DNA of 64,000 nt from Bilabrum cf. latius. Lineage: Eukaryota. The stretch is taken from assembly GCA_965178125.1 (NCBI GenBank), contig OZ237743.1, forward strand, positions 310,001-374,000, in the 5' to 3' direction. A program made the translations under genes and the position numbers. The notes beneath the pieces are model-generated. The model was not told the DNA's origin, made no database searches, and saw nothing but the letters and a program-made list of their open reading frames with translations. This document shows, piece after piece, positions 35,755 to 64,000 of the stretch (position 1 is its first letter; every line of letters starts with the position of its first letter).

Positions 35755-35755
35755 T

Positions 35756-39683: not shown

Positions 39684-40297
39684 CCCCCCCCCCGACGGCT
39701 GACGGCAGAGCAGAGATAAATCTCTACTCCTTGTCGCCAATGATAGAGAAGTAAAGCCTTACGGCTTTTCTTCTCGTGGTTCCATCTACTGGTTCTCCTT
39801 CCGACCTTCCCATCTACGAGTGAGAGGGTCATCGTCCCGATAGGGGCGAGAGCCTCTCCATCAAATGGATTCTCCTGATGTCTCCTTCTCATTTCTTGAC
39901 ACTTTAACACGACACCACACTATAAAAGTATTTCAAGTTAAAATTTAATCATCTACTTGAACAGGTTTTGTCGGCTGTGTTGTGTGTCTGGTGGTGTGCT
40001 GGGCAGCTGCTCCATTTTTTTTTGGCGAAAATCACGGCTAGTGAATGGATTCTAGCAAGGTGGGAGGGTGTGTTCCCAACTGATAGCATCTACCAAACAA
40101 TGGAACCACAAAACGGGAACTATGTGTCAGCATAGGGTAGGATATTAGACTACTAGTTGCCGTTGCCGGAAGAGATACTTGGTTCAGACGAGTCTCAGGC
40201 AATGGCTCGTTCAGTCTGGGAGTACAGGATGCTTTTTGCCTGTGATTGAATTAATTATAAAAGCTTGTATCCAATTGTGTGCTATAAAAATCGTTGT

Positions 40298-40420
40298 GTC
40301 CGTGGACGCCCATCATCCGTCCGAGGACGCTGACCTCCCGTCCGTGGACAGCGAACCTTTGTCCGTGGACAGCGAACCTTTGTCCGTGGACGCTCACCAC
40401 CCGTCCGTGGACGCTCACTC
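40298..40420. repeat. Six 21-bp tandem units with a GTCCGTGGAC core in the outer element's terminal non-coding region
   Basis: Direct reading; the core is an interrupted palindrome GTCC-NN-GGAC. Confidence 0.9.
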
Positions 40421-40632
40421 CAAAAATTATACTTTTTTTACTCCATATTATTACTAAACATTACTAAACATCAAATAAATTATATTTGGTGCTTGGATTT
40501 GTTTTTTGGTGGCTAGAAACTCAGAAGCAGACCCAACAGAATCCAACCGACTATGACTAGTATTTTACAACCTCATTAAATTATACCTTGTAAAAATAAG
40601 GGGCTTAAAGAAAAAATATCTATCTATGTATA

Positions 40633-42198
40633 ATGAGATTTTCAAATTATCTGAAATCAGGTGCCTTCCTCAAAATTGAAAAAGAAGACTTATCGTCTAT
40701 TCTGGCAGAAGAAATAGCCACTGCTCTTGATGAGGAATTAATCATAGCGAACAATAAAATTTACAAACGGAATAAATCGTTCCTGTTTGAAGAAATTGGT
40801 GATGCCAGAAGTGATACACTAATTGGAATTGTCGTTCAATACCTGACAAACAGCTACCAAAAATTAAGCGAGCAAGAAAAAAATAATCTATCACTTGCTT
40901 TGATGAAATTATACCCAGAGATGACCACGAAAAAAATTATGAATGGGTTCAAAAAAAAATTAAATGAGTCCTATGTAAAGTCCAATATTAATACCATTAA
41001 GCACAGCCTTACTAAAACGAATATTACCTTTGACTATGATATGAATGGAATCCACTTCCTCAACGGCAGGTTTAACCTCCAAACAAATAAGCTAGAACCT
41101 AGGAAACAAGGACATTATATCACCAAGTTCATCAATCGCAATTACGAGAAACCCACGAAAAAAAGTGTGAAACGAATCCAAGCAATTATCGCAAAATTAT
41201 TTCGTGAAGCAGAAGCTAAAAAATACATCCTACGATTATTGGGAAGTGTTCTGTCTGGTGATTCCGTCCAGCTCCAACGATTCCTAATCAACTACGGAAA
41301 AGGGTCAGCGGGCAAATCCTCTTTACTCAATATAATTTATTCATCCATTGGTGATGCTTATTTTAAGTATTTACAGAACGACGGATTATCCAAAAAGAAC
41401 CAAAAAAAGGACAAGGTGCTTAACTCATTTAATCCTGCTGTGAGATTCTACATCATTAACGAAGTAGACACAAGCACTATAGACACAAACCTAATCAAGC
41501 AAATTGCCGAGGGATGTATTCAAACCACAAAACTATACCAAGATGGTAGTCATACAATACATATCAGAGGGACATTAATATTTATTTCAAACCATATGCT
41601 AACCTTTCCACCAGACACAGGAATTAATCGCCGTTTGGTTGGCTACGAATACAAAAATAAATTCACCGATGAAGAGGATGAAATAGACAACGAGACCGTT
41701 TTCCAAAAGGACGAAGCTATTTTCAAAGGTGATTTCTCCGATGACGAAAAAAATGCTATCTTCTACATCTTCGCCAAGGAATGCTTCAGGCACCTCCAAA
41801 ATAAAAAGATTCAGAAGCCCGAATGTATGAAGGAGGTAGAGGAAGACCTTGTTGATGCCAACGACTACTTTAAAAAATTCATTGAAGACCATCTTATAAA
41901 AAAGGACGGGGCTAAAGTATCCATAGATGAGATAGTCAAGCTTATCCGTGAGAGTGAATCAACCAAGAGGAATATTCAAAGGACTCAAGTAATCAGCGAA
42001 TTAAAAGATAGAGGCATAGAATACAACAGACAGCTTCGTGTCAATGGTAGTTCACGAGGTGTCATTTTAGGATATGACTGGAAAGATGATTTTACTGATG
42101 GTGAAACCAAAAAGCATCATCCATTAGAATACGAAGACCTGAAGTTAGAGAACCAAAAACTCAGGGAGCTACTCAAGAAACACAATATTAAGTTATAA
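40633..42198 (+). CDS. SF3 (D5-like) helicase, outer element, 521 aa
   Basis: HFLNG..NL.T (D5_N-like), Walker A GKGSAGKS, Walker B IINE, motif C IFISN, GINRR. Confidence 0.9.
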   Translation: MRFSNYLKSGAFLKIEKEDLSSILAEEIATALDEELIIANNKIYKRNKSFLFEEIGDARSDTLIGIVVQYLTNSYQKLSEQEKNNLSLALMKLYPEMTTKKIMNGFKKKLNESYVKSNINTIKHSLTKTNITFDYDMNGIHFLNGRFNLQTNKLEPRKQGHYITKFINRNYEKPTKKSVKRIQAIIAKLFREAEAKKYILRLLGSVLSGDSVQLQRFLINYGKGSAGKSSLLNIIYSSIGDAYFKYLQNDGLSKKNQKKDKVLNSFNPAVRFYIINEVDTSTIDTNLIKQIAEGCIQTTKLYQDGSHTIHIRGTLIFISNHMLTFPPDTGINRRLVGYEYKNKFTDEEDEIDNETVFQKDEAIFKGDFSDDEKNAIFYIFAKECFRHLQNKKIQKPECMKEVEEDLVDANDYFKKFIEDHLIKKDGAKVSIDEIVKLIRESESTKRNIQRTQVISELKDRGIEYNRQLRVNGSSRGVILGYDWKDDFTDGETKKHHPLEYEDLKLENQKLRELLKKHNIKL

Positions 42199-42236
42199 AA
42201 TCTAATTACAATTCAAATAAATTCAAATTAGATTTT

Positions 42237-42890
42237 TTATAGACTCACACGAAGGGAAGCTGTTTTGACCTTGGGTCTCTCGTCAACTCCAGATTTTTTC
42301 AGCATTGATAAATTCATTTTTCTGACCTTTTTCACAGGCATACTATCACTTTGAGGCTCTACCTTCACACTATCAAACTTATAAAAATATTTTCTGTCTT
42401 TTCCTAGACCGTTTCGCACTCGTTTTACTCCAGCTTCCTTCATCCTCCTCCCAAATTTATTTTTGGTGATTGGACAATCGGAAAAACCACAGTATAATTT
42501 ATACACATCATCAACAACGATTCTTTTACTATCCGGTTGGAATTGCTCCAAAAATAAAATTACATCTTGTGTTTTATCGGGCTTAGCAGGGGTGGCACTG
42601 CCTTTATAAAAATTGAGATTGATGTATTTTTTATCTCCATCTTGCCAAGTCAATTCCCCGCTAGTTGCTGGATAGTAAACATCAGACATGAAGCAAGGAG
42701 TAAGAACAGTATATTTTGGAATATAGAACTGAATTTTCTCGAATGGTATCAACCTGATGGTTTGACCTAACACATCGTTAAAATATATTCCATCATAGGA
42801 GTAGTAAAAAAATTGCTTGATGTAGTCGTCGGGGCTTTTGGATAATTCTTTTTTTGCTTGTTGGTATTCAGATACTTTAAAGAAGCTCAT
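42237..42890 (-). CDS. 217-aa protein: helicase N-terminal-like domain plus D5-type winged-helix-like C-terminus, no ATPase core
   Basis: YIKQFFY..DGIYF, DVY, KYINL resemble the inner helicase N-terminus; DVYKLYCGF...TKNKFGRRMK. Confidence 0.6.
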   Translation of the reverse strand: MSFFKVSEYQQAKKELSKSPDDYIKQFFYYSYDGIYFNDVLGQTIRLIPFEKIQFYIPKYTVLTPCFMSDVYYPATSGELTWQDGDKKYINLNFYKGSATPAKPDKTQDVILFLEQFQPDSKRIVVDDVYKLYCGFSDCPITKNKFGRRMKEAGVKRVRNGLGKDRKYFYKFDSVKVEPQSDSMPVKKVRKMNLSMLKKSGVDERPKVKTASLRVSL

Positions 42891-44799: not shown

Positions 44800-45297
44800 T
44801 TATCCCATAAGATAAACTACAGGGAGTAATTTTTCTGTTTCGTCATCTTCCCATTTAACATCACATAAGGCTTTAGCGACTGTCTTTTTGTCTACAGCTT
44901 GAACAGATTTTTTCGTAGCTGAACCGTCAGAATGTGTGATTAGATAATCACCAGCTTTAATATCACCGCAAGTTTCTTTTTTAACTAATACCCCACCTTC
45001 ACCTACAGCATTAGCTTTTGCTTTTCCCTCTTTAGTTTTTCCAGCATAGACACCAAAAGGCAGAGCTACATCATCACATTTTTTTAATTCGTATTCGTTA
45101 TCACTGACAGAAACAGATTGAACCGATTGAATGGCTAAAATTGTTCCAAGCTCCAAGTCTTCCTCTAAACTTCCGATATGGGAGCCAGTGAAAGGGGTAT
45201 AAGTTCCTCCATCAAGTAAAGTACAATCACCCCTTAAGGTGAGACTTGCGTGATTACCGTTGTTAGAAAATTCAATGAACGAAGCATTAACACTGGC
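44800..45297 (-). pseudogene. 3' half of an outer-element fibre/chaperone-like gene split by the inner virophage
   Basis: Joins in frame to 63024..63254 (GKN|ASVNAS) giving 242 aa; FTGSH, AVGEG, AGDYL motifs shared with 55639..56814. Confidence 0.85.
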
Positions 45298-45302
45298 ATT
45301 CT

Positions 45303-45755
45303 GGGGGGGGTCAAGTGTGATGAGCGGGGCTCCACAGCAATATAGAGGAGACGCTTCGCGCCTCTCTACTCCTCTTAAGTCTCCTAGTAGAATTCCGTAG
45401 CGTGTCTCATAGTCCATGTCTCATAAAACAGACTACTTTTTATCTCCTACAAAGTAGGGGAATTTAAAGTTTATCTTTTATTTCTACTCCTATATTTCTC
45501 CTACAGCAATGACAGAGATGTTTTTATAAAAGTGTCAGAAGAAATTTGAAGAATCCAACGGCCTCCCAAAAACATCCCTGTGTTTGCTGTTAGAGGGATA
45601 CGGGAGCCGAAGGAACGAATTTGTCCCTACTTCGCAGGGCAAAACTCAATTTTAGACTTACTGAAGAGTTTCTACATCGGTCTCCATCTAGAGTCATGAC
45701 GGGAGCCGAGGGAACGTCTGGTCTTTCTCCGAAGCGAAGGTTCCCAAGACTTTCC
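45303..45755 (+). repeat. Left TIR of the inner virophage (begins G8-TCAAGTG)
   Basis: Reverse complement of 62571..63023 with about 4 mismatches seen. Confidence 0.95.
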
Positions 45756-45909
45756 TACAGCACTCCAGGTGTTCCCCAAGAAATCCCACCTTTTCCCCTC
45801 GGTTCTCGCACTGCGTGCTCCGCTTCCGAGAAATCCCAGTGCTTTCCATGCGATGCCCGCACTGCCTACGCCTTTCCCCACGGTTTTCCTACCGACCCCT
45901 ATAGTAAGA

Positions 45910-46113
45910 ATGGAAATAAAATTTATAAGCGATTCACTCTCTAAATTACCCAAAGAGGTTGACACGTTTCCTAACAAGAACACGAAGCGATTCTATCGTG
46001 CCCTTATGACTGATTCTCTTGTCAAAAAAATCAATCCAGTAATATGGAACAAACTCAAGATTAAATTGGAAACGTTTAGGGGGAACGAACGAGGAACGTA
46101 GTCAAACCAATAA
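45910..46113 (+). CDS. Small basic hypothetical protein, 67 aa
   Basis: ATG after TATAGTAAGA; one TAG, ends TAA. Confidence 0.5.
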
Positions 46114-46122
46114 AACCATACT

Positions 46123-47319
46123 TTAGTCGTTAGCAAACATTTTCCAAGCCATTCCCAAGGCTTTCTTGTTGCTTATCCCTTGTCCCCGGAGAATTGACGC
46201 CATTTTCATCACCCTTGAACGCTTTTCCGAAGACTTCCCTTTTCCAAACATTTCCACCCATGCTCCACTGACAGGGTCATCAACCACGGAATGAATTCCC
46301 TTCATGATAGGGACTCCCACGGTCTTTGTAGCCAAATCCCAGCCCTCCTTGAACTCTTTCCCAAAGTCCCTTTCTGTGTTCTACTTGTGTTTGGACTGAT
46401 TTTTCCTCAAAGCTTTCCTAATTTTAGGCGGTAGGCTGTCTATCTTATTTTTTTGGTCAAGCTTTTTCCCAAAAAGCTCACCTTTTCCAAATAGTTTGGA
46501 AGTCCAACCAGCTAAATCCGTAGCGACATTGGCGATTCCCTTGAACGCGGGGCTCATCTATGTTGCGATTTCAGCGACGGGCTACATAATGAACGACTCT
46601 AGGGAGGACGTTAAAAGCTTATTCACTTTTAGTATATCGCGGATGAACCTCTAGCAGTTCAAATCAAACGCTCTGTATTGGTAAAAATTGTATTCCCCTA
46701 TGCTTTCCAGGGTGTTTCCCAACAGTTCGTTTGCGGTTATAACACGGCCTTTCAAATCCACGTCCATCGTTTGACTGCGTTTATCCTTCTTATAGGTAAA
46801 CCCAACACTAACCCTCTCATTTTTCTCCATCACTAGCGGTTTTCCAGAGCCAATATTGGCGACAAGGTAGAGATGGAAATAGTCGCTAAATTTGTATTTC
46901 TTCTTCATCCGTTTCATCTTCCCGAAACTCATGACATTTAACAAGCGATTCAAACCAGACGACAAAGGAGTTCTTACAATCTTCAGGGAGAAAATCTAAC
47001 GATTTCCATACTTTTCCAAGGTTTTCCGAGTCGCGTTTGTGTGTCCCACGACAAGTCCGCCACACATACAACCACCCCTTTGAGTCATATATGAGTCCAA
47101 TGTATTGGATTGTATTTCTTTTTGTTTTCTAGGCCTTCCCCGATTAGATTTCTTAATATCCAATGATTTCTAGATGCTTTCCAGCATTTCCTTGGAGTAT
47201 GGGTGTTTTCCCTTCCAAGCCACCTAGGTTGCCTCATTAGGTTTTCTCACGGAAAGCATCGTTTTGATAAATCCCGTGTCTCGTTTGCCTCCTGAAAGCT
47301 CGTAAAATGACTCCGCCAT
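46123..47319 (-). CDS. 398-aa protein with an AT-hook-like RGRPRK and a permuted papain-like (PPPDE/LRAT-like) domain
   Basis: Single frame across TAGs; FHLYLV, MEKNE, YRAFDLNC[TAG]RFI (=NCQ); ends TAA. Confidence 0.65.
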
Positions 47320-47388
47320 GTTTAGTATAGATTTCCATACTTTTCCAACCTTGGGGTTTAAGTATATTTTAGCAGTCTATAGTATAGA

Positions 47389-47664
47389 ATGGTATTTGAG
47401 AGAGAACTGGAAGGATTCACATTTGTTGCCCCCTCCAAATAGAAAGGGAAGAAGTATGATGTGTATGACGAAGATGGTGAGTATATTACCAGCTTCGGAA
47501 GTAATTCCCACGAGCAGTATTTTGACCGTGTCGGGTATTATTCCCATTTAGACCACAAGGACGACGACCGAATGCGACGATTTCACCTTAGATTTAAAAC
47601 CCATAGCAATCCACCGAAGCCTAGAAGCCCCTTATGGTTTTCCAGTTATTATTTGTGGATATAA
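47389..47664 (+). CDS. 91-aa small protein of a type common in virophages/giant viruses (DUF5754-like)
   Basis: KKYDV..SFG....QY......DH.D..R..RF..R......SP.WFS..YLW; ATG after TATAGTATAGA. Confidence 0.65.
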
Positions 47665-47825
47665 ACGGTTTCCCCTTGGTTTCCCCTCGGTTTCCCCTCG
47701 GTTCTCGCACTGCGTGCTCCGCTTCCGACGGTTTCCAAGATTTCCCAGACTTTTCCCCTCGGTAAAAAGCTTCCTTGGAAAAGGGATATTTGATTTCCCA
47801 TTGAATAACTCTTCGTCTAAACAGC

Positions 47826-48446
47826 TCAGAGACGGTTTCCCAAGTCAAAGGTTTGCCGAATGAAGTTTTCCAACTGACTAAATGATGAAAACACCGTGTA
47901 GTGCGATTTGTCTAACTGGCTAATCAGACCGATTCGGCTTCTTTCCACTGCGTCCAAGATATCCTTGGACTCGGATTTAATATCCTCAAACAGGGAATGA
48001 CTTGGAACACACACGAAAATGCTTTCCAGCTTGAATAAATCTTTTCCAAGCTCAATATCACTACAGAAGACAATGATGCGACGACCTTTCTTGGTTAGCC
48101 AACGACTCTTCACGTCCTCATATACTTTCTTACAATGTCCGTAGTAAGTAAGACGGTGAGTAGACTCATCTCCGCTCTCAATCATTTTGTCTAACTTTCT
48201 TATTTCATCCGTTTTAAGGTGTGCCCTAACGACCTCGTCCAAATCCACTAGAAGTAGATTCTTATCCACGGATTCCAATTCCCTGACTAGGTGAGTCTTT
48301 CCCGCTCGTCTGGGAACCACTACACACACCTTCTAACGCTGATGGGGTAATTTAGTGGCCCATCCATACACACACTTGGATCCTTGGTAAGCCAAAGGCA
48401 CCATGGTTCCGATCACGGTCGCTCCAGTAAGAATTGCTGAAGCCAT
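47826..48446 (-). CDS. 206-aa P-loop NTPase/kinase-like protein
   Basis: VVVPRRAGKT followed by LLVDLDE; one TAG; ends TGA. Confidence 0.6.
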
Positions 48447-48503
48447 TCTGTCGTTTTATATAATATAAGACAACACAATATATTTATTTAGTCGCTAATT
48501 GAA

Positions 48504-50273
48504 TCACTGCGACATAATCTGGAGCAACTGATTACGAGACAACTATTTTCCTCCTGTTAAACCGGCGGCAGTCATACCGGCAGCAGTCATTCCTCGCCCC
48601 TTCTTTCCTTTCCCCATTCCCACCATCTTGGCGACCTGTGTTCCAGTCTATACTACATCACCCACGGTCTTGAGTAATTGTTTAGCTTTTCCACTCTTCA
48701 CATAATCCGCTACTTTCCTCAAAGCGTGCCTAATCTTGCGACCAAGATGCCTCCTCTTGCCACCATGAAGACCACTGATTTGACTCTCGTAAACCGTAGG
48801 AAGTTTCTGTGCGGAAAGCACATCAGCACGACTGATGACACCCTGGGAATAAGAATACTTCGTTCCCTCGGAAAGATTTAGAACGCCTTCATACAGTCCC
48901 ACGATCACCAGCTCTACACCACCTGCGGGGTAGTCCTCCAAGTCGTTGTTCTGAACCTGAGCGGTGATGGAAATCTCGTTGGAACCGTTAGAACCGTTCG
49001 TCTAATCCACATCAAGACTCAAGTCCTTGGCGGGATCAAGACAGATGAGCCCACCGCTTAATACCTTGTCTCCAAACTTTCTCATGACCCACTCTTCATA
49101 CTCCTGTTCCAAGCCGTTTGTTCTGGATAAGTCCCACAGTTGCTCTCGTGATGCGTCCGCGAGGAGACCCGAACGGTTATTCATCTGGACGGAAAGCGAT
49201 TGAATCGCTAGGAATGTGTTCCCCTTGTCCGTAGGAAGAGTGTTGGGCGACCGCCTTGCGAACACGAAAATGCGAGAAGGAACGGAATTGGAAAGCTTGT
49301 TGTTGTTATTTACCAGAGTAGCCGTGGCTCCGCTTGGAATGCCAGCACCATGTGCCTAGACATACTGCGTCATTTCAAAGACGTCGTAGGAAACTTGCTT
49401 GGGTAGGGTAAAGCCGACCTTGGGGGTAAGCATTTCAAGCATTAGCCTGGGGTTCATTACCTTGACATCCGAGACGCTCACGGAAGCCCCCTGAGGAAGA
49501 AAGTGAGACCAAAGGGTATTGCGAAGATTGGCAAAGTTCACATCTAATTCAAGGGTTTCCAGACCGAATAAGGCGGGTTGCTCTTCCTTGGTTTCATAGT
49601 GGAAAGGGGGAACCATAATACATTCGGCTACGGTGAACCTCACGGTCCGCTGTGCCGTGCCTGGACCCTATGCTGCTGCGGCGGGAACTGGGGTATTGTC
49701 TGGGGTGTTCTCCAACTGGAAATACCCGACACCACGCCCTGGACTCTGATACATACCGTCAGAATACGACCGAAGAGGGTTATTGGAAGCAGCATTCATC
49801 ATTGAATAACTGGGACAATTATCACGGCGATATACGGAATTCAGGCAGTTTACCTTGTGGACTTCGTCGTCAAGACAGTGATTGACTACATCCATGATTT
49901 GAGCGTTATTCTGGGTAAAGCGAACGGAATCAAGCGTTGCGGTTTGGGTGGCGATAGAACGGTTCAAGGGGTATGCCCTGGGGGCGTAAGTGTCTTCTCC
50001 AAATGGAACAACTGTTGCTGCGTTCGTGTTGCTGAAGTCAAGAGTTAGTTCAAAGGTTGCGGACATATACCCACGGCGACTGACACCGACCCCTGAGGGA
50101 ATGGAAAGCGACCAATTCACGCCCGAGGAATAGTCTCCGGCAGACCCTGAAGGTGCGTAGGAACGGAAGGTTCGGTTGGCGTATCCAGTATCCACGGCGT
50201 AGGGTTTGGCGGTGATGTCAAGGGAGGCGGGTTCAATTTTGACTGGCTCCAATGCGTGAATATTGAGGCTCAT
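48504..50273 (-). CDS. Virophage major capsid protein, 589 aa
   Basis: Four track ORFs in one frame joined by TAG; YAV..G, PS...VSRR, AYPL, GL..LEL..NF, VPSRIFVFAR, NNRSGLLA; basic C-tail after LHGG; ends TGA. Confidence 0.9.
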
Positions 50274-50391
50274 TGTCTGTTATACTATACACTCCGTTTT
50301 AATTTCTGATATTCCTTTCAAGAAATATCAAACAAATCATTTCCAATGTATTCCAATGTTTTCCAATGTTTTCCAATGCTTTTCTAAAGGA

Positions 50392-51501
50392 TTACCCGTG
50401 TCGGGAAAACTTAAATTTCACCGATGCGGAACCATGCCGAAGATATAGGGGGTGCGTCTCTCCGTAGGAATCTTTCCAATACAAATTAAACTGTAGCGTG
50501 TCAATACTAGAAGCGTTGAGAAGATCTATGGTGTGTTCTATCTTGGGCTGATACTGGAGAACGGCCTGGTTAATCATCTGGGAATCATCTAGGACACAAT
50601 CCATATCCACCAAAACACTTTCCGTGCCTCCTGTAGAACTAATGGACTAATTCGTGGAAAATCCAAAGGGAGTTTTGGCTGATACCCCCTCGCTTCGCAC
50701 TGGAAGACTGCTCGTTGTGAAAACGACTCCGCGGAACACCTGGAAATGTGCTAGACTGCCCCTATCCTGGGTCATTTTGAGTCTGTAAGGGGACTAGGGT
50801 ATAGTTTCCGTGTATGTGATTGGTGCGAATCCATCATCATCGTTTTCCACCAAATAGTTTGTGCCTAGGGATTTGAAAAGAACGGAGGAAAACACGTCTG
50901 GGTTCGTGTCTTGGATTCGCTGGACTGGGAAACCGCTTAAAAGTTCTCCCAATGGTTCATTCAATACTAATCTGTATTTCTGAGAAGGTTGTCCTTCGTG
51001 ATAGCTGGAATCCGCGAACAGGGAAAACTTTCCGTCGTCATAGGTAAGCGTTGGCGTGGTTGCTACTGCTGACTAGGGAAACTTCTCCATGGTCTCATTA
51101 AAGAGACTGACAAAGTGTTCTATCGTGTATAAATAATAATATCTTGTAAATGCCTGGGGGGACTACCAACTCGGCTACGGTTCTGCGATTAACTAGGGTT
51201 TCCAAATGATGGGTTGCGTTCCAATCATGCTCCCGTCCTCCACGTCTTGGATGCTGATTCTGTAGATGGTTTGGTCTGGATTCTTGCTGGGATTTGTGGA
51301 AAGGTCTATATCTATGTGGGGAATCCATACGGGAATTGTATTGGTGGATATGGTGAATCGTTGGACGCTCAATTTGTAATCCTCTACATTTCCGCTTAAG
51401 ATTGGCTTTTTCCTCACCTCATTGTATTGGGCGGGCTGATAGGAGTCTTCATTATTGCGTATATTTGCGTTGATATAGAAGTAGTCAGGTTGTCTAGACA
51501 T
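50392..51501 (-). CDS. Virophage minor capsid (penton) protein, 369 aa
   Basis: YNEVRKKPIL...DYKLSVQRFTI...IPVWIP, YYYLYT, VVFTTSSLPV, YWKD.YG...L....SASVKF.F. Confidence 0.9.
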
Positions 51502-51732
51502 TTACTATACTATAACTTTTTAAGAAAAAGTAATCCTTTTAAGAAAAGAATAAGCAAAAGAGCGGAGCGCGCTTAAGCGCGAGCATCTTGACTAAAAACA
51601 GTGAACGGGAGGGGTTTTCATTTCAACCCTTTGGGAAATGGTCGGAAGTCTTGGGAAATGGGTAGGAAACACTTGGGAATTGCTAAAAAACATTCTAAAG
51701 ATATACTAAGTGGTTTTTCTGAAAAAGTAACT

Positions 51733-52263: not shown

Positions 52264-52337
52264 AGCGTTTTCCATTTTCGTCAAAACTGTATGCGTCCAG
52301 TGAAACACTATTATCGTTATCTATACTATAGAAGGAA

Positions 52338-53249: not shown

Positions 53250-53257
53250 AAGCTTTT

Positions 53258-53725
53258 TCAAAATAAATTTTGCTCCTTTACATATTTACTTGCTTGTGGA
53301 AGAGACATGCCAGTCTGCTCCATTACCGCCTTTACTACTTTATTCCTTTGTTTCATTTTCTCACTTATTTTCCTCTTACGCCCTTCCGTGGGCTTTTGGG
53401 AAAAGCTCTTACGTTTTCCAGAACCGCCCAGAGATAATCCACCGATATTGGATAAATCCTCTACTGGGGTTCGGAGATTGTCAAAACTGCCGACATGAAA
53501 AGGGGTTTTCTCTTGCTTTCCCGCCAGTTTCTTCCAGATCTGTTTGCCCTTGGCGACTACACCTTGTCCCAAGGTCTTAAATATGAACTTCATCGCCTTG
53601 GCATCATCCGTCCATTTTCCGCCTTGGAGATTGGGGGACACTTGGGCGATTCTCTCGTTGGCGTCCTTCTGTTTCTGCTACACTAGCTATGCCGTCCGCT
53701 TCCTAATGTATTCGTCAATATCCAT
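53258..53725 (-). CDS. 155-aa basic putative virion core/DNA-binding protein
   Basis: Several GG motifs; C-terminal RNKVVKAVMEQTGMSLPQASKYVKEQNLF resembles a motif recurrent in virophage proteins. Confidence 0.65.
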
Positions 53726-53934
53726 TATAGTATAGAATGAGTTTTTTTTAAAGAAATATGCTCTTTCATTGTTTTCCATTGCTTTCCATAGATTTCCAAA
53801 CATTTCCCTCGGTTTTCCACCCATTTCCAATCCGCTTGAAAAACGCTTGGAAAACAAGATGCTCGGCCTTTGGCCTCCGCTCTTTCCATTCTTTTCAAAA
53901 GGATCTTTATTAAAACGTAATCTTATAGTAAAGC

Positions 53935-55278
53935 ATGTCATTCCAATCACCAAACGTCCAAGCACTCATACAACAAGCCCTTGGAAAACAGCTAGACTGG
54001 GCGAAATTGTAGGATTTAGAAGCAAAAGACACCGCCGACCTGGAAAGCGAATACGCTTCCTATATTAGGTAGAAAAGTAAAATAGAACGATTGAAGGAGA
54101 GTGGAAAATATGGAACGCCTTCTATGAGGAAGAAAGCGGACCAAACCAACTAGGAAATCGTGGGGAAATCCATCGCTGGGATCATGAAGGGAGTGGTTGA
54201 GGGAGAGCTGGGAAAAGCGCGGAAAGCGACGGAAGCTTTAAAACAGTTCTTGGGAAGCATCAACGTGAGTGGGGAAATGAAGGAATACTTGGGGAGACAA
54301 ATTGTAAACATAGCGACCCTTGCGAGGAAGGGATACGCAGGCTTGCGTAAAGTCCCATCAGAAGATATGAAAATCTTGAATAACCTTAGAGAAATTGTTT
54401 AGAGTTCAGCAGGATAGCCGCATACTATACCACGAGGACTTCGTGAAACACCAGAACGGACTGTTGAGAGAACACCGCAGTTGCGAGAAGAAGAGGCAGA
54501 AAGGGACGACGAAGACAACGACGAAAGACCTGAGCCGACAAGAACGAACAGGCAATTGCGAACCATCCTAAAAGATATGGGAAAAGCAAATATTGATACA
54601 AGCCAATTACTTCGTTTAAGAGACGCAAAAGACCAGCGACTAGCAGCCCGCATTTGGGACGCAAACAGAGACCAAGGGATAGAGTATGCTTTACAATTCG
54701 CCAGCGGCTCCACGGTATCACCAGCCAAAACACGAGCAAGACGACAAAAGGAAGCAGACATTCCACTGGAAGACCCGCCAGCGCAGCCTCAACCACAAAG
54801 AAAGTTCCGACCACAGAAAGAGATAGAGAAAGATATGGATAACGCATATCAGGCAGGATTCATTACAGAGGATGAAGTTAGACTATTCCAGCGAATTAAA
54901 GATTCCAGCGACAGGAAGGTGGTGCGAGCGTTTTGGGATAGGCATAAAAATTTACCGCTTAAACGAGCCATTCAAATTGTAGACCCGCAGTTGTGGACTG
55001 AAGAAGAGGCGGAAGTGAGACGAATGTAGCGGGAGGGACGGGCTCCAAGTTTCGCATCACCTATACAGAAAGGAGCCAAGAAAGGAGCCAAGAAGGGAGC
55101 CAGGAAAGGAGCCGTGCGAGGGCGCGGACGATTAAATCCATAGGAATCACACCTTTTCCAGACCGCTAAGAATGTTTCCAAGAAGGTAAAGGGAGCGACC
55201 AAAGACATTCAAGACTAGGTTGCGGACGAAGTGATTTCTCTACTTAAATCTACTGCTATACTATATAGCACAGAATGA
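53935..55278 (+). CDS. 447-aa charged/coiled-coil hypothetical protein with KGAK repeats
   Basis: One frame across several TAGs; ends TGA overlapping the next ATG. Confidence 0.7.
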
Positions 55279-55487
55279 CGGAAGAATGGAGTTACAATAA
55301 ATACTATTACGAGAAAAATAAGGAACGCTTAAAGAAAAAGGTGGAGTGCGGGTGCGGTTCCAAAGTAGCTCGCTACAATTTGTAGCACCACAGGAAAACC
55401 AAGAAACACATGGCGTGGGAAACCGATGAAACCAAGCAGGAAATCCAACGACTCAAGGACGAGTTAAAATGCTTGAAGCATGAATAA
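55275..55487 (+). CDS. 70-aa zinc-finger protein
   Basis: YYEKNKE...VECGCG......NL[TAG]HHRKTKKH. Confidence 0.75.
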
Positions 55488-55638
55488 AAGAGCTTTTTAG
55501 GAAAAACCTCAGCCAAAAAGAATTCAGAGAGTCCTTAAGTAGTTTTGGTTAAGCAAGATGCTCGGCCTTTGGCCTCCGCTCTTTTCATTCTTTTTGAAAG
55601 GATAATCTTAAAAGCTTACTATATATATATATAAACGT

Positions 55639-56814
55639 ATGTCCGTCTCTAATCTATTAGTGCCGAACTCATATAGGTTGTATTGTCAGAGTATAACACC
55701 CGTTGAAGGTGGTGGAGGTGGCGGAACACCGAGTCTATCAAGTGTTCTACAGGTGGGAAATGATGCTGGAAATACTACAATCACAAATGTTGCCCTTCCA
55801 GTCAATAACCAAGATGTTGCTACGAAGCAATATGTGGATTCCACGAGTGGCGGAGGAGGTGGTGGAGGAGTAACACCAAACCTAACTGCTGTGCTGACAC
55901 AAAGTGGAGACGCGGGAAACCTTACCATATCAAATCTAAAGTCTCTGCGAATGGCAACAGGAGGCAACGGGGAAATCCAAACACCTTTTTCGGGGAACGC
56001 CTCTTTGGGATACACCCGTTAGACAGATGAAAGTGCTTTGTTTGAATACTATGCGAACTATGGAACGGGAAGTAAGAACCCTATGACACGACTTTATACA
56101 GGAAACGGGAACGAAGATGGAACGAACGCCGAATTTATGGTGTATGGGACAATTGAGTCTAACAAAGGGGTCATGGGGGGTATGACGCTCACAGGTGCGA
56201 TTGACGGAGATAAACAAAGAGAACAACCCACCATCACACTTCAAACCACACCAAGTCCTCTCAAGAACCAAATAGAGGGAAGGAATACAAATGGAACTCC
56301 AGCAAACAACTTCATTCAATTCTGGATTGATGATGGTAGTGGAAATCTGGTAGGCACAGCACAGATACGTGGAGATGGAACTATGTTCGTGTAGAATGGA
56401 GTTGTTCCTTTCACGGGAGCACACGTGGGAACGCTGGGAAGCGGTCCGAAACCAAAGATTGGGTAGGTTATGTCAGTAAGAACTGCGACGGTAAACGATG
56501 TGTCTAATTGCGAGTTTTCATTCAGGGTTTGCGATCACACAAGCGTTCCATTTGGAGTCTTTAGCGGAGAGGGAAAGGATGGGGAAATACGGGTGAATTC
56601 CGTGGGAGAAGGTGCTGTCCTTTGTCTGCGAGATGACAGCGTTCCTATTTTGGCAGGGGACTATCTGTCTATCTCAAGAACGAAAAAAGGATATGTGGAA
56701 AAGTCCAGGAGTTCTCAATTTTCTAAATGGGTCGTTGGGAAAGCAATCGTAGATGTTGAGTGGGACGACGAGGAGGAGGAAAAGTTAATTCCAGTGGTAT
56801 ATTATTGCGGATAA
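55639..56814 (+). CDS. Fibre-like protein with a C-terminal chaperone-like domain, 391 aa
   Basis: VLQVGNDAG..ITNV..P...QDVATKQYVD repeat; FTGAH..VGEG..AGDYL..PVVYYCG; three TAGs. Confidence 0.7.
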
Positions 56815-56848
56815 ACGAAAAAAGCGGAGACTATAGTATATACACAAT

Positions 56849-57373
56849 ATGAGTCTTTCCAACATCCTTCAAGACAACAGTTTCGCACTCAAGTGTGCTT
56901 CTCTCACGACTGAAGCAATCTATGGACTACAAGGAAAGGATTTGACGATTCAAACCACAAGGGCGGATTCTGGCGACGATGGATATGCTGTGGTGCTGAA
57001 AGCGTCAAATTCTACCACTACTGAAACGTGTGATATTCGGTTTGGAAATGGCGAGCTTGGAACAGCCTCGGCTCGTATTTACGCAAGGCAAGGCGGACAA
57101 ACTCAACAAGATGACATAGATGGGTCGTATTTCCTTGGTGGGTATTGTGTTCTTTCCAAAGGGGGGGCGGGTCTTGGTCTTCCAGTAAGGACTGCGACCT
57201 AGATTGGAGACTCCACGGATACTTGTAATAAAACAGGTCGTCCAGAAGACACAAAACGAGCGGGTGTGCTTCTGTTTAATTCTACAGATTCTATTGTGAT
57301 GGTTTCCGTAGGTGATGACTCTACGAGTGCTTGGAAGGAAGTGGGTGGAACAACCACCATAACACCATCATGA
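56849..57373 (+). CDS. Second fibre-like protein, 174 aa
   Basis: N-terminus MSLSNILQDNSFALKCASLT parallels MSVSNLLVPNSYRLYCQSIT; one TAG; ends TGA. Confidence 0.55.
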
Positions 57374-57467
57374 TGTATCTCCAAAGAACCCTAAGGGCTT
57401 TTTGTAGAATACCTATCCGGTAGTTCAATACAATCACTATTGTAAGGAAATCATTCTATTGACTCCT

Positions 57468-59312
57468 TCACTATAGGAACACCTTTTTCTTCGCGTGAGT
57501 AATCACACACTCCCCCTGAGTCTCTAATTTCCACTCTCCGAGGTTTTCCGAGAGTTTCAAGGGGATTTCCACATCGCTCACAAATCCGTCCGTATTCACA
57601 TAGTGGATTCTATCTAGGTGCGGTTCTATCACCTTGGAAAGTTTCCGCCGACCAAATGCTGTTAGGAAAGGGCCTAGACGAGCATAGCAAGTTCTATAGG
57701 TATATGTTTGTGTCGCTAGAATGCCTTTTACCCTTCTTCCACCGTCCTACATGAAGGCGTCCTTAAGCGTTCTGAAGTCCACAACTTCGTCGTCGCTGGA
57801 AATGGTCTTTACTACCTAATTCTTTTGACACAACGCACCCCATACAGAATTAAGCAGTTGTTTTGCTGTTTTAAATCCTTTCTTTTTATATCCAAAGAGT
57901 CGCTCCACCAAACCCTTGAAGAGACTGACTGCCTTGATTCGCCTGTCTTTCTCGTAGATTAGGGCATTCGCCTGACCGTCTTGAATGATGGAAAAGGTCG
58001 CCCCTGTTTCCTACGCCCTTACTATATCGTGGTGAGTCCAATAATCGTTTTTGCGTGGCTGGATAAGCTTGGGATTTAGGTGTTCCACCTTTACCCTGTA
58101 AATCCCGAATTTCCAACCGAAGTCCTCTGGGGTCTGGGAAAGCGTCTGGAAATCTCCGGAAAGGATTGGAAACTACATCTATGACTTCAATATGCTTGGA
58201 TAGAAGCTATTCATGTCGTATTGGTATGCTTTCTCCAGTTTCGTGTCGTTGTTCGCCCAGTTCAGTCCGCCACCAGACGCCTTGGAAATCCACTCCGCCT
58301 CTTTGCGCCCCAAAGGCTCGGCTGGGAAAAGCTTGGAAAACTTGGAAAAGTAATGCTTTACGTAGTAGGAAGGTCTATATCCATATTTAGATAGATCCAT
58401 ATACCCACCAGTCTCTTGAGAGAGTGTCTCGGCGTCCTCGTGGATTCGCCTCCAGGTCGGTTCTAGGTCTTCCTCTACAGAGACTTTCCAAAGACTCTTT
58501 GTATGTATATCTGTTCTTAATCGTGATTCAATATGTCTAGTTGCTCCGTCATACATGATATATTCGCTTTCCGCCTTTTTCCAGTAGGTGATTAGGCGAA
58601 CTGACTCCTTCGTGGGAATACACATTAAATCTTTCTGGGATTCTGGGGAAATGAACTCGTAATGTCCGTTTGTAAGGGAGATGCTCGCCAAGGGGTCGTA
58701 AGACTTTCCAGATGTGTAGGAAAAGTCTCCAGTCAGATGAATGCGGATCTTCAGGTAATCCTCTACCTCGGGAATTCTCTTGTAGTGGATTGGTTCGCTC
58801 CGTCCTAGGTTCAGTTGGGACTTTAGCTGGGCGGGGGAAATCCTATGGAAACCACTTTTATACTTGCCATTTACCTTCTTGTTTCCTCTAAATCCTACTT
58901 GGAAGGGAAAAGCCTTCTTTAGGGCGTTATACAGACAGTCGTTATTCTCGTCCTTTCCGCCCCTCGGATTGTCCTTGGGAAGCAAAAGAAGTTCAAATGT
59001 GTTTAGTCTGCGGTGTTCCTACTCATCTACATCCTCGTCTTCGTATCCCTTCCACAGAGAGGTAGTTTCCTTCAAGTCTTCCGTGGTGATCCAAGCACTC
59101 CTTGTCCGCCACCCTTCCTCCACAAAATTGAGGTTTATCTTGAACTTGTATCCGTCAAAGGGATTCTCTCCGTCCTCGTCGTAGTCCTTGATAAAATCCA
59201 TCACATCCTTTACAGTGATTAGCTCGTCCGCATGGAACCTAACGCTCCAAATTGGAACGCCGTTGAGTCTCAAGTTGGTCCTCTCGGGTTCGCCGAAATC
59301 AATCTCAACCAT
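57468..59312 (-). CDS. Protein-primed family B DNA polymerase, inner virophage, 614 aa
   Basis: YDMNSFYP, KQLLNSVWG, YVNTDG, LGEWKLE; collinear with 42989..44767; ends TAG-TGA. Confidence 0.92.
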
Positions 59313-59453
59313 TCTAGAGTATATAATATACTATAGACTACCAAATTATACTTAATGTGTGAGCCTCACGATGCCCTTCCGTGGGCAGACTACGGGTGAA
59401 ACGAGAAGCAACGCTTCTCCGCTATGGGTTTTGCTGTCCTTTTCTGAAAAGGA

Positions 59454-61136
59454 TTACGCCTCGTCAATTTTACACAGAGACAGTTTCAGAGATTTCCCAC
59501 GCTTTCCAAGGGGTTTTCCTTTGGGTTTTGGTGGGTTTTCCTTCATCCATGCGGTGATTGCTACACATGACTCGGCCGACAGTTTCTTCTATGTTTTCCT
59601 GTGGAAAAGCTAATTGTCGTCCATTTCCCTCTCCAGTTCCAACTCTTCTATGCGTTCCGTTTGCTCCTGTAGTTTCTTCTACATTTCCTATAGTTGTTCT
59701 CGTAGCAGTTCCACCTCGGTCTTGGCTTTCTCTACCTCTGCTTCTTGGCGGAGAGCTTTGAACTTCTTCCGAAACCCTTCCAATAGGTCTTTGTGCTTAA
59801 CCTTAAACTCTTGTTTTCTCTGTGAGTTCATCGTGGAATACACACCTACTTCCGCCAACTGTTCCTTAATCTTCGGCGTGGAGAGGTTCTTGATTTGTCC
59901 CTTCAGTTCGTCCTTTAGGTAGTTGCGGAAGGCCATCACGGAAATGTGGAAATCTTTTCTCTCGTCCAACCACTCTTCCTTTAGCGTCCGCAGGATAGGG
60001 TGTGCCCCTTGTAAAATCCCCTTATGGAAATTCTAGGATTTCGGAGCGTATAGTCCCTTGAACTCAGGTGAGTCGTCGTAGACTTTCGCGAGGTATAGGA
60101 AGAACGCCCTCGCCACCTCTTTGCTCTCCGTTGCTTCCTTGAGTTTCTTAAAGTATTCCTTGTCGCCTTTCCTGGATGTGTTTACATCCAACACGCAATA
60201 TCTGCGGATTTCCTCTGTAATTTTGATGGGTGCGTCGTTCGTGTCAATAACGAGGTTGAAGGTGTTGGGACGGCTCTCGGTCTTGACGAATTTCTCATTA
60301 CAGGAAAAGGTCTTCTCGGTAATTAGATTGCGTAGGGTCGCCTACATAGCGTTCCATCTAGTATTGGAAGCTTTTGGAATCTCATTGAAGTTCACAAGTA
60401 GTTTTCCATCTAGGATAGAGTTGAAGGCATCGGGCTGAAGCATGGCGTTCGTGAGCGTCTGGAGCGTCAGGGTGTATCCAAGGAGTTTTCTCATAAGGAA
60501 CGTAATGATGATAGATTTACCAGTTCCCTACGGAGACTTTAGATACAGGGCGGTCTGGAGTTTTTCCCCGCCTACAATCACGTGTGCCAGCCACTTCATC
60601 ACGAAGTCAAACTGGGTGTCGTCCTCGCTCGTCCAGACCTTGTGGATATGTTCGGAAATACGAATCACGCCTTCCCGTGCGTCTTCAGGCACGTCTTCTA
60701 GGTTTCCGCAGTTTTCCCGAGTCATCAGGGGTTTTCCCATGAGGTTAATCGTTTGCTTCTCGTAGTCCACAGTGGGTGCGTTGAATCGTCTCACCACCCG
60801 AAAAACATCTGTGTTCTCGTTAAAGAACCAATCACGAGCAGACCAATCCTTCACCTTCCTATTGTTTACCATTCGGTAGATACAGTGTCCGCCAATTAGG
60901 TAGTTCTCGCTGATGTTTCGGTTCGCCAAGAACTACCAAACTGGTTTCTAGGGATTCTCGTCGGAAATGTTCTAGCGGTTCAGTTCATCCCCCTAGAGGA
61001 AATACACGCCTCCACCTTGGTCGTGGGTGCGGTAGAAATATTGTTGAATGTATTTGATACAATCCTCCTGATTTCCAGTATCACAGAGTTGCTTGAGGGT
61101 TCTGGCGGAAAAGGCAACGGTTGGCATCTGAGACAT
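59454..61136 (-). CDS. SF3 helicase, inner virophage, 560 aa
   Basis: LYLKSP[TAG]GTGKS, LLVNFNE, VIDTN, EIRRY; ends TAA. Confidence 0.9.
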
Positions 61137-61347
61137 TTTCTGTTGGTTATACTATATACTACCAAAATATACTTAAGTGCTGATGCGTCAATTTTCCAGA
61201 GAGTCATCTGAGACATTTCCAGAGATTTTCAGAGGTTTCCAAAGATTTCCAAGAGATTTCCATAGCTTTCCAACGATTGGAAAAATATAGGTAGTGCGTT
61301 AGTCTTAAGGTATGGAATTTTCCCCACTCATCTTCATTGTTCGCCAC

Positions 61348-62427
61348 TTATGTCAGGTCTATTGGGGCTATCCCAAACTCCGCTGGAAGTTGCTTTTTGG
61401 CGTCTTCTAGGGTTTCCCACGTCCAATCCTTTTCGTTTGGAAGACCGTCCCATTCCACTTTGACTCTCGTTGGTTCTCGGGTATGGACTTTCTTCATATC
61501 CTTTCTGCGGATTGCCTTGGTGTTGTGGAGCTCATCGTCGTCAATTATCTATAGTTCTTCCTTTGTGTAGGCTACTTTGTGTTTCTAATCCACGACATAT
61601 AAAGGGGGCTACCCTGGTCGCAGAAGCACCTTGGTAATTTGTCGCTCGGTCGGGTCGTAGCGTAAATCACTGGCTCTAAATGAACCCATGAGTTTCTTGG
61701 AGAGTTTGTAGGCCTCTCTAGGTTCTTCCAATGGAATCCTAACAATTGTTCCCTTTTCCAAGATATCGCAAGCCTTTCCCCTACAGTGGGTCGCTCCAAA
61801 GTCAGTCGTGGGAATGGGTGGGTTTTCTTTGAGTTTCTCTTTCTGGAATTCGTTGTAATCATTGACAATCGTAGGTATTAAATCCACCCAACGTCGTTCT
61901 ACTTTTCCCTTGGCTATTTCCTCTACATTCTGGACGGAATTGATGACGATTCCAAACAGCTTGTTTAGGTTTTCCACCACGGCCTGTTGTTTGTGTCGCC
62001 CTGGCTTGTTTCGGCGCACGTAAATAGGCCTTTCCTATTCTTGTAGGTGCCTTGCCAATTCGTTAAATTCATTTCCGTTGTCTATTTCTAGCCTCACGGT
62101 GGGTTGCTAGACATTTCCCCGCATGAATATCTAGAGAGCTTTTTCATAGGTTTCTTTCTGGGTTTTCTTCAATAGCGGTTCTGCGTCTATTAATTTGGTG
62201 TGTAAATCCACAGCAGTTAAAAGGTATTTATATCCTTGGTCGTTCGGCAATTGGAGTAAATCCATCTGAACGACTGCGTTTGGCTGCGGGACGTTCACCT
62301 TGGGTCTGTTCTTGCCCTTGGGTTTCTTTGGGCGTTTCATTAAATTGCGGATTCTAGAGTCCTAGGGTATGTGAACCCCTTGGAGAACATATTGGAGAAC
62401 ATTCGGGTATTCTTTCAGGATTTCCAT
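61348..62427 (-). CDS. Retroviral-type (rve, DDE) integrase with a C-terminal chromodomain-like region, 359 aa
   Basis: QMDLL..YKYLLTAVD, IDNGNEF, QAVVENLN, VKVEWDG.P...WTWE; seven TAGs; ends TAA. Confidence 0.92.
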
Positions 62428-62570
62428 TTACTATAAGGGTCGGTAGGGAAACCGTGGGAAAATCTTGGGAAATGGTGGGATACCTTGGGAAACACCAGGG
62501 ACTTCTTTGGAAAAGGTGGGATTTCTTTGGATGCTGTATGAAATTGATTGGAAACCGAGGGGAAACCTTG

Positions 62571-63023
62571 GGAAAGTCTTGGGAACCTTCGCTTCGGAGA
62601 AAGACCAGACGTTCCCTCGGCTCCCGTCTTGACTCTAGATGGAGACCGATGTAGAAACTCTTCAGTAAGTCTAAAATTGAGTTTTGCCCTGCGAAGTAGG
62701 GACAAATTCGTTCCTTCGGCTCCCGTATCCCTCTAACAGCAAACACAGGGATGTTTTTGGGAGGCCGTTGGATTCTTCAAATTTCTTCTGACACTTTTAT
62801 AAAAACATCTCTGTCATTGCTGTAGGAGAAATATAGGAGTAGTAATAAAAGATAAACTTTAAATTCCCCTACTTTGTAGGAGATAAAAAGTAGTCTGTTT
62901 TATGAGACATGGACTATGAGACACGCTACGGAATTCTACTAGGAGACTAAAGAGTAGTAGAGAGGCGCGAAGCGTCTCCTCTATATTGCTGTGGAGCCCC
63001 GCTCATCACACTTGACCCCCCCC
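62571..63023 (-). repeat. Right TIR of the inner virophage
   Basis: Reverse complement of 45303..45755. Confidence 0.95.
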
Positions 63024-63254
63024 ATTCTTTCCTAAGTAAATTCTTCCATTACCGCCATCACTGGTAATGAATGGTACACCTTTTCCGTCAGCTTGACTGA
63101 AAGAAATTCCAGCATTGCTTGCCAAGTCTCCATTACCATCAAGTGTTGATATTAAATTAAAACGATTAGTATTTATAATACTATGACCTTGGCAATCTAA
63201 TTGTTTGGCTATATTTAAATAACCGATGGTTGAAAAGGGCATATTATCCGACAT
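63024..63254 (-). pseudogene. 5' half (77 codons) of the split outer-element gene
   Basis: MSDNMPF...RIYLGKN then the TIR; continues at 45297. Confidence 0.85.
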
Positions 63255-63283
63255 ATTACAAGACTATAGATTATTTTTTTAAA

Positions 63284-64000
63284 TTAAGGTGGAGCCGATA
63301 TGGGGTCAAGTGGTGTGGGTGGTAAGTTGGCAGCGGTTATATTCCCCATAACTACTAAATTACCATTTGTTAAGTTCAGGCGGAATAAATTAAATTGACT
63401 TAACTTATCAGTTATGCGGATATGGTTATCATCATCACATTCAATGAAACATTTTATATCACCATTGTTCTGAATAGCAATTTGAGAACCGGCTTGAAAA
63501 GTTGTAGCATCAATAAAATTGGCATTTACTATATTATTATTGCCAGCATCATCACCAACAGTTAAAACTTGGGTTAGATTCTGAGGACTTCCACCTCCTC
63601 CCGATTGTGAATCAACATAAGCTTTTGTGGCTACATCCTGAGCATTGGTAGGATTCCCTATATTTACGATTGATTGACCTCCTCCGTCATTTCCTTGATT
63701 TAATACTTGGGTAAGATTCTTATTAGAAGCATTATCAACATATGATTTAGTTGCGGCATCCGTTGAATCTGAGGGTTGTGAGAGGTTTTTGATTTGCTGA
63801 TTTCCCGCATCGTTTCCAACGGTTAACACTTGGGATAGATTCTGAGAACTTCCTCCGCCACCCGATTGTGAATCAACATAAGCTTTTGTGGCTACATCTT
63901 GGTCATTAGTTGGGTCATTGACATCAGTTATTTTGTTATTTCCTGCCGAATTTCCAACGGCTAACACTTGGGTTAAATTTTGATTGGTTCCTCCGCTTCC
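63284..64000 (-). CDS. Outer-element fibre-like repeat protein (5' end outside window)
   Basis: Tandem QNLTQVLxVGNDAG..I.....PT..QDVATKAYVD..SGGGG repeats; ends TAA. Confidence 0.75.
   Translation of the reverse strand, partial: GSGGTNQNLTQVLAVGNSAGNNKITDVNDPTNDQDVATKAYVDSQSGGGGSSQNLSQVLTVGNDAGNQQIKNLSQPSDSTDAATKSYVDNASNKNLTQVLNQGNDGGGQSIVNIGNPTNAQDVATKAYVDSQSGGGGSPQNLTQVLTVGDDAGNNNIVNANFIDATTFQAGSQIAIQNNGDIKCFIECDDDNHIRITDKLSQFNLFRLNLTNGNLVVMGNITAANLPPTPLDPISAPP

Follow-up and report, generated by a model that had tools for sequence, protein, structure and literature searches.

A cell whose genetic code has changed might be protected from viruses by the change, or might hold captive those already inside it; which of the two applies is an old question on which there is little natural eukaryotic evidence. 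It is raised by a stretch of 64,000 nucleotides (nt) of Bilabrum cf. latius (assembly GCA_965178125.1, contig OZ237743.1, positions 310,001 to 374,000; hereafter the window, numbered from its first letter), in which host DNA is followed by an AT-rich viral element, here called the outer element, and a complete virophage, the inner element, is inserted into the latter. The host reads TAG as glutamine (Gln); the inner element uses TAG 72 times in frame and the outer element not once. How did two related elements at a single locus come to differ in this way? We regard it as rather probable that both are endogenous virophage-type elements, the inner one having evolved for long under the TAG=Gln code and the outer one for a short time, and that the TAG-free state of the outer element is a by-product of base composition.

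Nesting of the two elements

By base composition the window falls into three parts, with a guanine-cytosine (GC) content of 55-63% up to ~39.7 kb, 33-38% from there to 45.3 kb and ~45% at 45.3-63.0 kb; at the far end, after 63.0 kb, it is ~41%. The boundary between host and outer element lies at 39684|39685, where the alignment to two host paralogues breaks and the last copy of a host gene is cut off by the outer element, which runs from 39685 to beyond 64000 with ~6.6 kb visible in the window. The features that define the second insertion are:

45298..45302, left target site duplication ATTCT, 5 bp
63024..63028, right target site duplication ATTCT, 5 bp
45303..63023, inner virophage, 17,721 bp, GC 45.0%
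63024..63254, minus strand, 5' part of the outer 242-amino-acid (aa) fibre-like gene, 77 codons from the ATG at 63254
44800..45297, minus strand, 3' part of the same gene, 165 codons plus TAA

The inner element is delimited by inverted ends (45303-45755 and 62571-63023; 453 nt with 4 mismatches) that start with G8 and end with C8. When it is excised in silico together with one ATTCT copy, 63254..63024(-) is joined to 45297..44800(-) and gives an intact open reading frame (ORF) of 242 codons, which exists only after this removal. Because of the inverted ends, the target duplication and the restored ORF, the nesting of the inner virophage, with a fibre-like outer gene as its insertion site, is real. 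An rve integrase, inverted ends and a short target duplication, as expected of an rve-mediated insertion, are all present. In the order of events that we propose, the AT-rich outer element would first have integrated, cutting the host gene at 39684, and the complete 17.7-kb virophage would then have inserted into the fibre-like gene, most likely by means of its own rve integrase, leaving the 5-bp duplication. Homopolymer runs terminate both elements, namely C9 at the outer left end (39685-39693), and G8 (45303-45310) and C8 (63016-63023) at the inner ends.

No single contig spans the stretch, and at either junction the likely source run has contigs that extend just 29 nt into the inverted ends, below the at least 31 nt that we required of a bridge, which would suit an assembly chimera. 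A chimera is, however, not expected to yield the 5-bp duplication or to restore the 242-codon ORF exactly. The right junction is moreover spanned, without differences, by a 674-nt contig that comes from another study's run and extends 68 nt into the inner element. The empty site (45302 joined to 63029) was found in no contig of four runs, which is uninformative either way. We hold it very improbable that the locus is an artefact of this kind or that, in the other form of the same explanation, the outer element is a relic that predates the change of the host code.

Genetic code of the host

1..39684, host flank, repeated units of ~10 kb, with in-frame TAG in their subtilase-like and other genes

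The long ORFs of this flank, whose GC is about 58%, are open only when TAG is taken as sense. Seven long host ORFs (4934 codons) hold 32 TAG, 140 CAG and 42 CAA in frame, with TAA (1) and TGA (6) in frame solely as terminal stops; the ORF at 7053..10898(-), present in two repeat copies, has 1281 codons, a Peptidase_S8 match (E 8e-8) and 10 in-frame TAG. The nuclear code of the Bilabrum host is TAG = Gln with TAA and TGA as stops, as in NCBI table 15. Table 6, in which TAA is also sense, was rejected: it fuses adjacent genes, including the DNA polymerase and helicase genes of the inner element, and TAA therefore still stops. No tRNA gene was found in the 64-kb window. A DIRS-like retroelement at 27707-30993 (RVT_1 reverse transcriptase and Phage_integrase tyrosine recombinase) carries 7 in-frame TAG, so that the host's own mobile elements are also recoded and, since host genes and host retroelement alike are full of TAG, the code change is old. 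This age speaks against the outer element being a relic from before the change, as do its four complete ORFs, all intact, and its GC, still 36% in a host of 58%.

TAG codons in the inner virophage

Under the standard code the longest ORF of the inner region has 201 aa, while with TAG as sense ORFs of 174-614 aa open on both strands. The genes read in this way include:

46123..47547, minus strand, ORF of 474 aa, function unassigned, 8 TAG
47826..48446, minus strand, ORF of 206 aa, function unassigned, 1 TAG
48504..50273, minus strand, major capsid protein (MCP), Sputnik-type, 589 aa, PF21915 E 8e-23 and PF22031 E 9e-25, 5 TAG
50392..51501, minus strand, penton (minor capsid), 369 aa, PF21507 E 1.4e-12, 6 TAG
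51658..52263, plus strand, ORF of 201 aa, placed where virophages have the cysteine protease gene, 4 TAG
52338..53249, plus strand, P-loop ATPase, 303 aa, AAA_22/AAA_16 matches below curated cut-offs, 6 TAG
53935..55278, plus strand, ORF of 447 aa, function unassigned, 8 TAG
55639..56814, plus strand, fibre-like protein, 391 aa, homologous to both outer fibre ORFs, 3 TAG
56849..57373, plus strand, second fibre-like ORF, 174 aa, 1 TAG
57468..59312, minus strand, protein-primed DNA polymerase B (pPolB), 614 aa, PF03175 E 9e-8, 7 TAG
59454..61136, minus strand, DUF5906/VapE-type helicase, 560 aa, PF19263 E 1.5e-15, 11 TAG
61348..62427, minus strand, rve integrase, 359 aa, PF00665 E 1.3e-9, 7 TAG

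In total, 14 ORFs with 5041 codons contain 72 in-frame TAG beside 101 CAA and 75 CAG, TAG making up 29% of the Gln-type codons; they stop at TAA (8) or TGA (6) and never at TAG, and hold no other in-frame TAA or TGA. Both matches of the MCP exceed the curated cut-offs for the virophage double jelly-roll, and the penton scores 47.6 bits against PF21507 (Sputnik V18/19), for which the cut-off is 27. The 303-aa P-loop ATPase is probably the packaging ATPase, its matches being generic AAA ones below the cut-offs, and the 201-aa ORF, which has no Pfam match, may by its position be the protease. Judged by these predicted genes, the inner element is a complete virophage of the Sputnik/mavirus type (class Maveriviricetes).

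The meaning of TAG in this virophage and its relatives was read from homologous proteins. Gln stands in the nearest homologue (55-72% identity) at 7 of 16 aligned TAG columns (MCP 3/5, penton 1/6, helicase 3/5), the next residue being serine, at 3; the pPolB alignment (21-30% identity) is too diverged for such a reading. Two database gene calls (P0020 and P0028; 114 and 82 aa) match the inner helicase at 100% identity and terminate directly before TAG codons, and a 64%-identical relative terminates exactly at the sixth TAG of the inner gene. In the 90%-identity capsid cluster to which this relative belongs, two 109-aa members end right before a residue that is Gln in three full-length members of 587 aa. 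Among the standard-code calls of one such cluster (P0001, P0180-P0187), some have the full 587 aa and others end right before a Gln site or resume after it; P0019 ends at a TAG position of the inner helicase. This pattern looks like CAG/TAG polymorphism among close virophage variants on many metagenome contigs. Relatives of the inner element at 64-72% protein identity indeed occur on many metagenome contigs, with TAG-type breaks in their standard-code gene calls; in IMG/VR, relatives of the inner MCP were not found. From these comparisons, the inner virophage clade carries TAG at Gln sites, in a number that differs between close variants.

Exclusion of TAG from the outer element

Besides the 242-aa gene given above, the outer element has the following ORFs in the window:

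40633..42198, plus strand, D5-like helicase/primase, 521 aa, PF08706 D5_N E 1.3e-6, no TAG, stop TAA
42237..42890, minus strand, ORF of 217 aa without family match, no TAG, stop TAA
42989..44767, plus strand, pPolB, 592 aa, homologous to the inner pPolB (PF03175), no TAG, stop TAA
63284..64000, minus strand, fibre repeat ORF, >238 aa, open at the window end, no TAG, stop TAA

Counted from their ATG, the outer ORFs comprise 1773 codons with 0 TAG, 62 CAA and 18 CAG, and all five stops are TAA. In a refined set of 1815 codons (17 CAG, 65 CAA) the counts by frame, coding frame first, are 0/50/13 for TAG, 0/30/87 for TGA and 5/54/93 for TAA. Positional base frequencies predict 19.5 in-frame TAG for these 1815 codons, where 0 are observed, and the probability of finding none is 1e-11 at the TAG density of the inner element, 8e-6 at that of the host and 7e-4 at 0.4% of codons. 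Chance and base composition were rejected as causes of the TAG-free frames by the frame counts, the positional expectation and these probabilities. Taking TAG as sense leaves the outer ORF boundaries where they are and opens no credible extra gene, so that the result is not an artefact of ORF calling. The outer reading frames exclude TAG just as they would a stop codon.

A first-pass annotation, made from the sequence of this stretch, had described one element nested in the other, five outer ORFs (521, 217, 592, 242 and >230 aa) free of TAG and ending in TAA, an inner element that uses TAG freely and is less AT-rich, and homology between the pPolBs and between the fibres of the two. This description holds throughout. 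The nesting is borne out by the inverted ends, the ATTCT duplication and the restored ORF; the outer set has 0 TAG in 1815 codons and TAA at 5/5 stops, its last ORF being >238 aa; the inner element has 72 TAG in 5041 codons and a GC of 45.0%, against 36.2% in the left part of the outer element; and the depletion of TAG, once set against base composition, amounts to 0 seen for 19.5 expected. The pPolBs share 27% identity over ~600 aa (E 2e-59), the C-terminal part of the outer 242-aa ORF shares 37% with the end of the inner fibre (E 4e-34), and the N-terminal repeats of the outer ORF at 63284..64000 share 41-58% with the inner fibre (E 8e-16). The outer fibre consists of two ORFs 29 nt apart (repeat part and C-terminal part) and the inner one of a single 391-aa gene. 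The outer element is not a virophage in the strict sense, since its capsid genes (MCP, penton), if any, lie beyond the window.

The lack of TAG might also be explained if the outer element had been in this host for as long as the inner one, with AT pressure and few CAG codons (17) holding TAG down. TAG arises synonymously only from CAG, which is indeed rare in the outer element (17 CAG vs 65 CAA); some recoded relatives of the inner element have whole 587-aa MCP genes without TAG; and the two elements have a fibre type in common and a TATAGT-like motif before some of their genes. Nonetheless, T is not disfavoured against C at the synonymous first positions of the outer ORFs (TTA 57 vs CTA 27, TTG 15 vs CTG 14), so that at a TAG=Gln equilibrium TAG should at least equal CAG. 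The probability of no TAG at host density (8e-6) is also against such a resident, as is the saturation with the reassigned codon in long-term residents of hosts with other codes (L045 and L046, see below). We consider this explanation quite unlikely.

Stop codons of environmental relatives

What is to be expected of an AT-rich element from elsewhere was read from 47 environmental loci with a related pPolB, of which one was obtained with a 13-sequence alignment (IMG/VR) and 46 with a 5-sequence alignment (metagenomes). No in-frame stop interrupts the pPolB match in 43 of the 47. The match at L044:5197-5838 has 2 in-frame TGA, and in those at L045:3082-3900 and L046:4479-5297 (19-20% GC) a single CAA faces 16 TAA and 3 TAG in frame. 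Since the standard code opens no ORF in L045 and L046, they are elements of a host with a ciliate-type code; pPolB relatives from hosts with other codes are in this way saturated with the reassigned codon.

Of the loci, 27 measure at least 4 kb, and 25 were counted after the exclusion of L045 and L046; near-duplicates are apparent among them (L007/L008, L011/L019). Their 146 ORFs of at least 120 aa stop at TAA in 109 cases, at TGA in 25 and at TAG in 12. No TAG-ending ORF occurs in 18 of the 25 loci, and 8 of the 25 use TAA only. The locus L001 (27% GC), with a virophage-like gene set (helicase, rve-chromo integrase, pPolB, A32-like ATPase), stops at TAA in 12/12 cases. With mostly TAA stops, and 18/25 loci without a TAG stop, most AT-rich relatives would already read identically under TAG=Gln. 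As far as its sequence goes, nothing sets the outer element apart from an ordinary standard-code one.

This bears on the notion of a true generalist, in which the outer element moves between standard-code and TAG=Gln hosts and purifying selection keeps TAG out, both in frame and as a stop. Such an element would be expected to show what the outer one does, i.e., 0 TAG in 1815 codons where 19.5 are expected, 5/5 TAA stops, and integration in a TAG=Gln host with its ORFs intact. The identical pattern is, however, the default in AT-rich relatives, and no selection is therefore needed for the TAG-free state; five stops, moreover, are too few to show avoidance, five TAA in a row having a probability of (109/146)^5 ~0.23 at the frequency of the relatives. 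A relative from any named host was also not found: the search for close relatives of the outer pPolB gave best protein matches of 28-33% identity, and a single-protein search of IMG/VR gave no relative. A generalist under selection is in our view unlikely.

The first-pass annotation had seen in the two elements opposite codon strategies, and in the outer one a generalist or recent arrival that avoids the ambiguous codon. An adaptive avoidance is not upheld, as a TAG-free state with TAA stops is the default of AT-rich standard-code relatives; for the same reason "recent arrival" is the part retained, as the economical reading. The outer lineage would have evolved with TAG as a stop and spent little time under the new code, and it would read alike in both codes because it stops almost only at TAA, a by-product of base composition rather than an evolved strategy.

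Residence of the two lineages

Codon usage sets the two elements apart. GC at third codon positions (GC3) is 0.33 in the outer element, 0.50 in the inner and 0.63 in the host, and relative synonymous codon usage correlates with that of the host at -0.48 for the outer element and -0.09 for the inner. In run X1, the inner element was covered at a depth of about 100-147 and the outer at 33-38; 204 contigs were placed on the stretch, 116 of them at >=99% identity, 46 at 95-99% and 42 at 90-95%, with many inner variants at 90-99% identity. A collection of 15 billion proteins yielded 2 exact inner protein fragments, from an 18,878-nt contig, and no exact match to the three outer proteins looked up (0/3). 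The inner family looks like an established resident, multicopy and with variants, and beside this settled lineage the outer one looks new or rare. That the inner element is a long-term specialist, as had been proposed, agrees with its adherence to the TAG=Gln code of the host, its multicopy variants and its relatives with TAG-type breaks. Over a long time under the changed code, C-to-T changes at CAG, synonymous in this host, would have produced TAG, and the TAG-loaded inner virus would no longer be translatable in a standard-code cell.

Several points weigh against a settled inner and a newly arrived outer lineage. At a TAG density of 0.2% of codons, the absence of TAG from 1810 outer codons still has a probability of 0.027, and whole 587-aa MCP genes without TAG do occur in the recoded inner clade (in the 90%-identity cluster). 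No relative of the outer element above 33% identity was found, and none points to a standard-code host for the lineage. The outer fibres are nearer to the inner ones (37-58% identity) than are the polymerases (27%), and the shared fibre type and TATAGT motif hint that the two elements have a helper virus and a host in common, as would be less expected of a newcomer from elsewhere. Of the two insertions at the locus, besides, the outer one is the older, and the visible part of the outer element is limited to ~6.6 kb, with the right end beyond the window.

Comparison with known systems

Endogenous mavirus-like elements (EMALEs) have been described from Cafeteria burkhardae (PMC8547959). Such elements are reportedly AT-rich virophages of ~20 kb, with an rve integrase, pPolB and inverted ends, in the GC-rich genome of a flagellate that is said to use the standard code. 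They are alike in being AT-rich integrated virophages, the host code being reportedly standard there and TAG=Gln here. Nested elements of these EMALEs are retrotransposons, as cited in PMC12220804. In Halocafeteria seosinensis, a preprint describes virophages within virophages or polinton-like viruses, with inverted ends and target duplications as in our locus, and takes an element GC nearer to that of the host as a mark of older acquisition (bioRxiv 10.64898/2026.07.28.741278). A variant code is not mentioned in the text searched ("genetic code", "stop codon" and "TAG" have 0 occurrences in it), whereas in Bilabrum the codon state provides a second, sharper mark of residence time.

The nearest case that we found is that of Streblomastix strix, whose endogenous viral elements use the host table with TAA/TAG=Gln (Bellas, Hackl et al., 2023, PMC10120064), a usage in which the authors saw a mark of long association. 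As in Bilabrum, an integrated capsid-encoding element in a variant-code protist has reassigned stops in frame; here, on the other hand, TAG alone is reassigned, the virophage is of the Sputnik type and a second, non-recoded element lies at the same locus. Bacteriophages with TAG=Gln (code 15), e.g., crAss-like ones, are reported to have many in-frame TAG read as Gln (PMC9523058; bioRxiv 10.1101/2022.01.06.475225). They differ in code from their standard-code hosts, while in Bilabrum the host is recoded, the inner element matches it and the outer is readable either way; a suppressor tRNA gene was not found in the window. Alternative codes as barriers to viruses were treated in theory by Shackelton and Holmes (2008, as cited in PMC13524828), and in recoded Escherichia coli, an engineered bacterium, a changed stop meaning is reported to limit viruses and mobile elements (PMC6207430). 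In comparison with these, the present locus is a natural eukaryotic one in which both states are found. No TAG-recoded virophage, and no nest of a recoded and an unrecoded element, was found in the literature searched, although the supplementary element tables of PMC10120064 and of the Halocafeteria preprint may hold cases. Nested virophages, endogenous viruses that follow a variant host code and codes as virus barriers are already in print, and the elements themselves are ordinary.

The interest of the locus lies in both states being side by side in one host, as a standard-code cell would meet 72 premature stops in the one virophage, and the other element would read alike under both codes. 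This suggests an asymmetry, in which a TAG=Gln host is cheap to enter for AT-rich viruses with TAA stops and return becomes impossible once TAG has built up; the code would then work like a one-way valve that lets viruses in with ease and, after TAG accumulates, hardly lets them out. That the genetic code is a host-range filter among virophages, as the first-pass annotation went on to suggest, would be plausible, though as a general hypothesis it is old. TAG counts across the integrated elements of this genome and its relatives could become a measurable clock. In a stronger version, the outer element would be a real shuttle between standard-code and TAG=Gln hosts, under selection against TAG, and the inner one locked in the recoded host beyond the valve; we find this distinctly unlikely. 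Were it true, the reassignment of a stop to sense would sort virophages into free and captive lineages, with the TAG load dating the capture.

Possible promoter motif and further features

The motif TATAGT(A) (window 47358-62470) stands at most ~40 nt 5' of the start codon in 7 of 13 inner genes, namely those for MCP, penton, the 447-aa and 174-aa ORFs, pPolB, helicase and integrase, and is possibly a shared late promoter. In the outer element TATAGT precedes the start codon in 1 of 4 genes (that of 242 aa), with similar AT-rich strings before two more. As TATAGT-like motifs precede genes of both, the two elements may use the same helper virus; no giant-virus sequence was found in the 64-kb window. 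The inner integrase has a C-terminal end similar to the chromodomain in the integrase of the relative L001, in which PF00385 is matched; such a likeness, if real, could steer insertion into silenced DNA, e.g., an older viral insert. Runs of TTTCC/GGAAA units, spaced by 10-11 nt, occupy the intergenic regions of the inner element.

39685..40632, non-coding left arm of the outer element, ~950 bp, starting with a run of 9 C

This arm contains five GC-rich tandem copies of 21 bp at 40297-40433, with the core GTCCGTGGAC. In the host flank, the repeat units of ~10 kb at 7053-10898 and 17414-21259 encode an identical subtilase-like ORF of 1281 codons. A gene of 480-580 codons without family match is also present there in several copies, the last of which is the one cut by the outer element.

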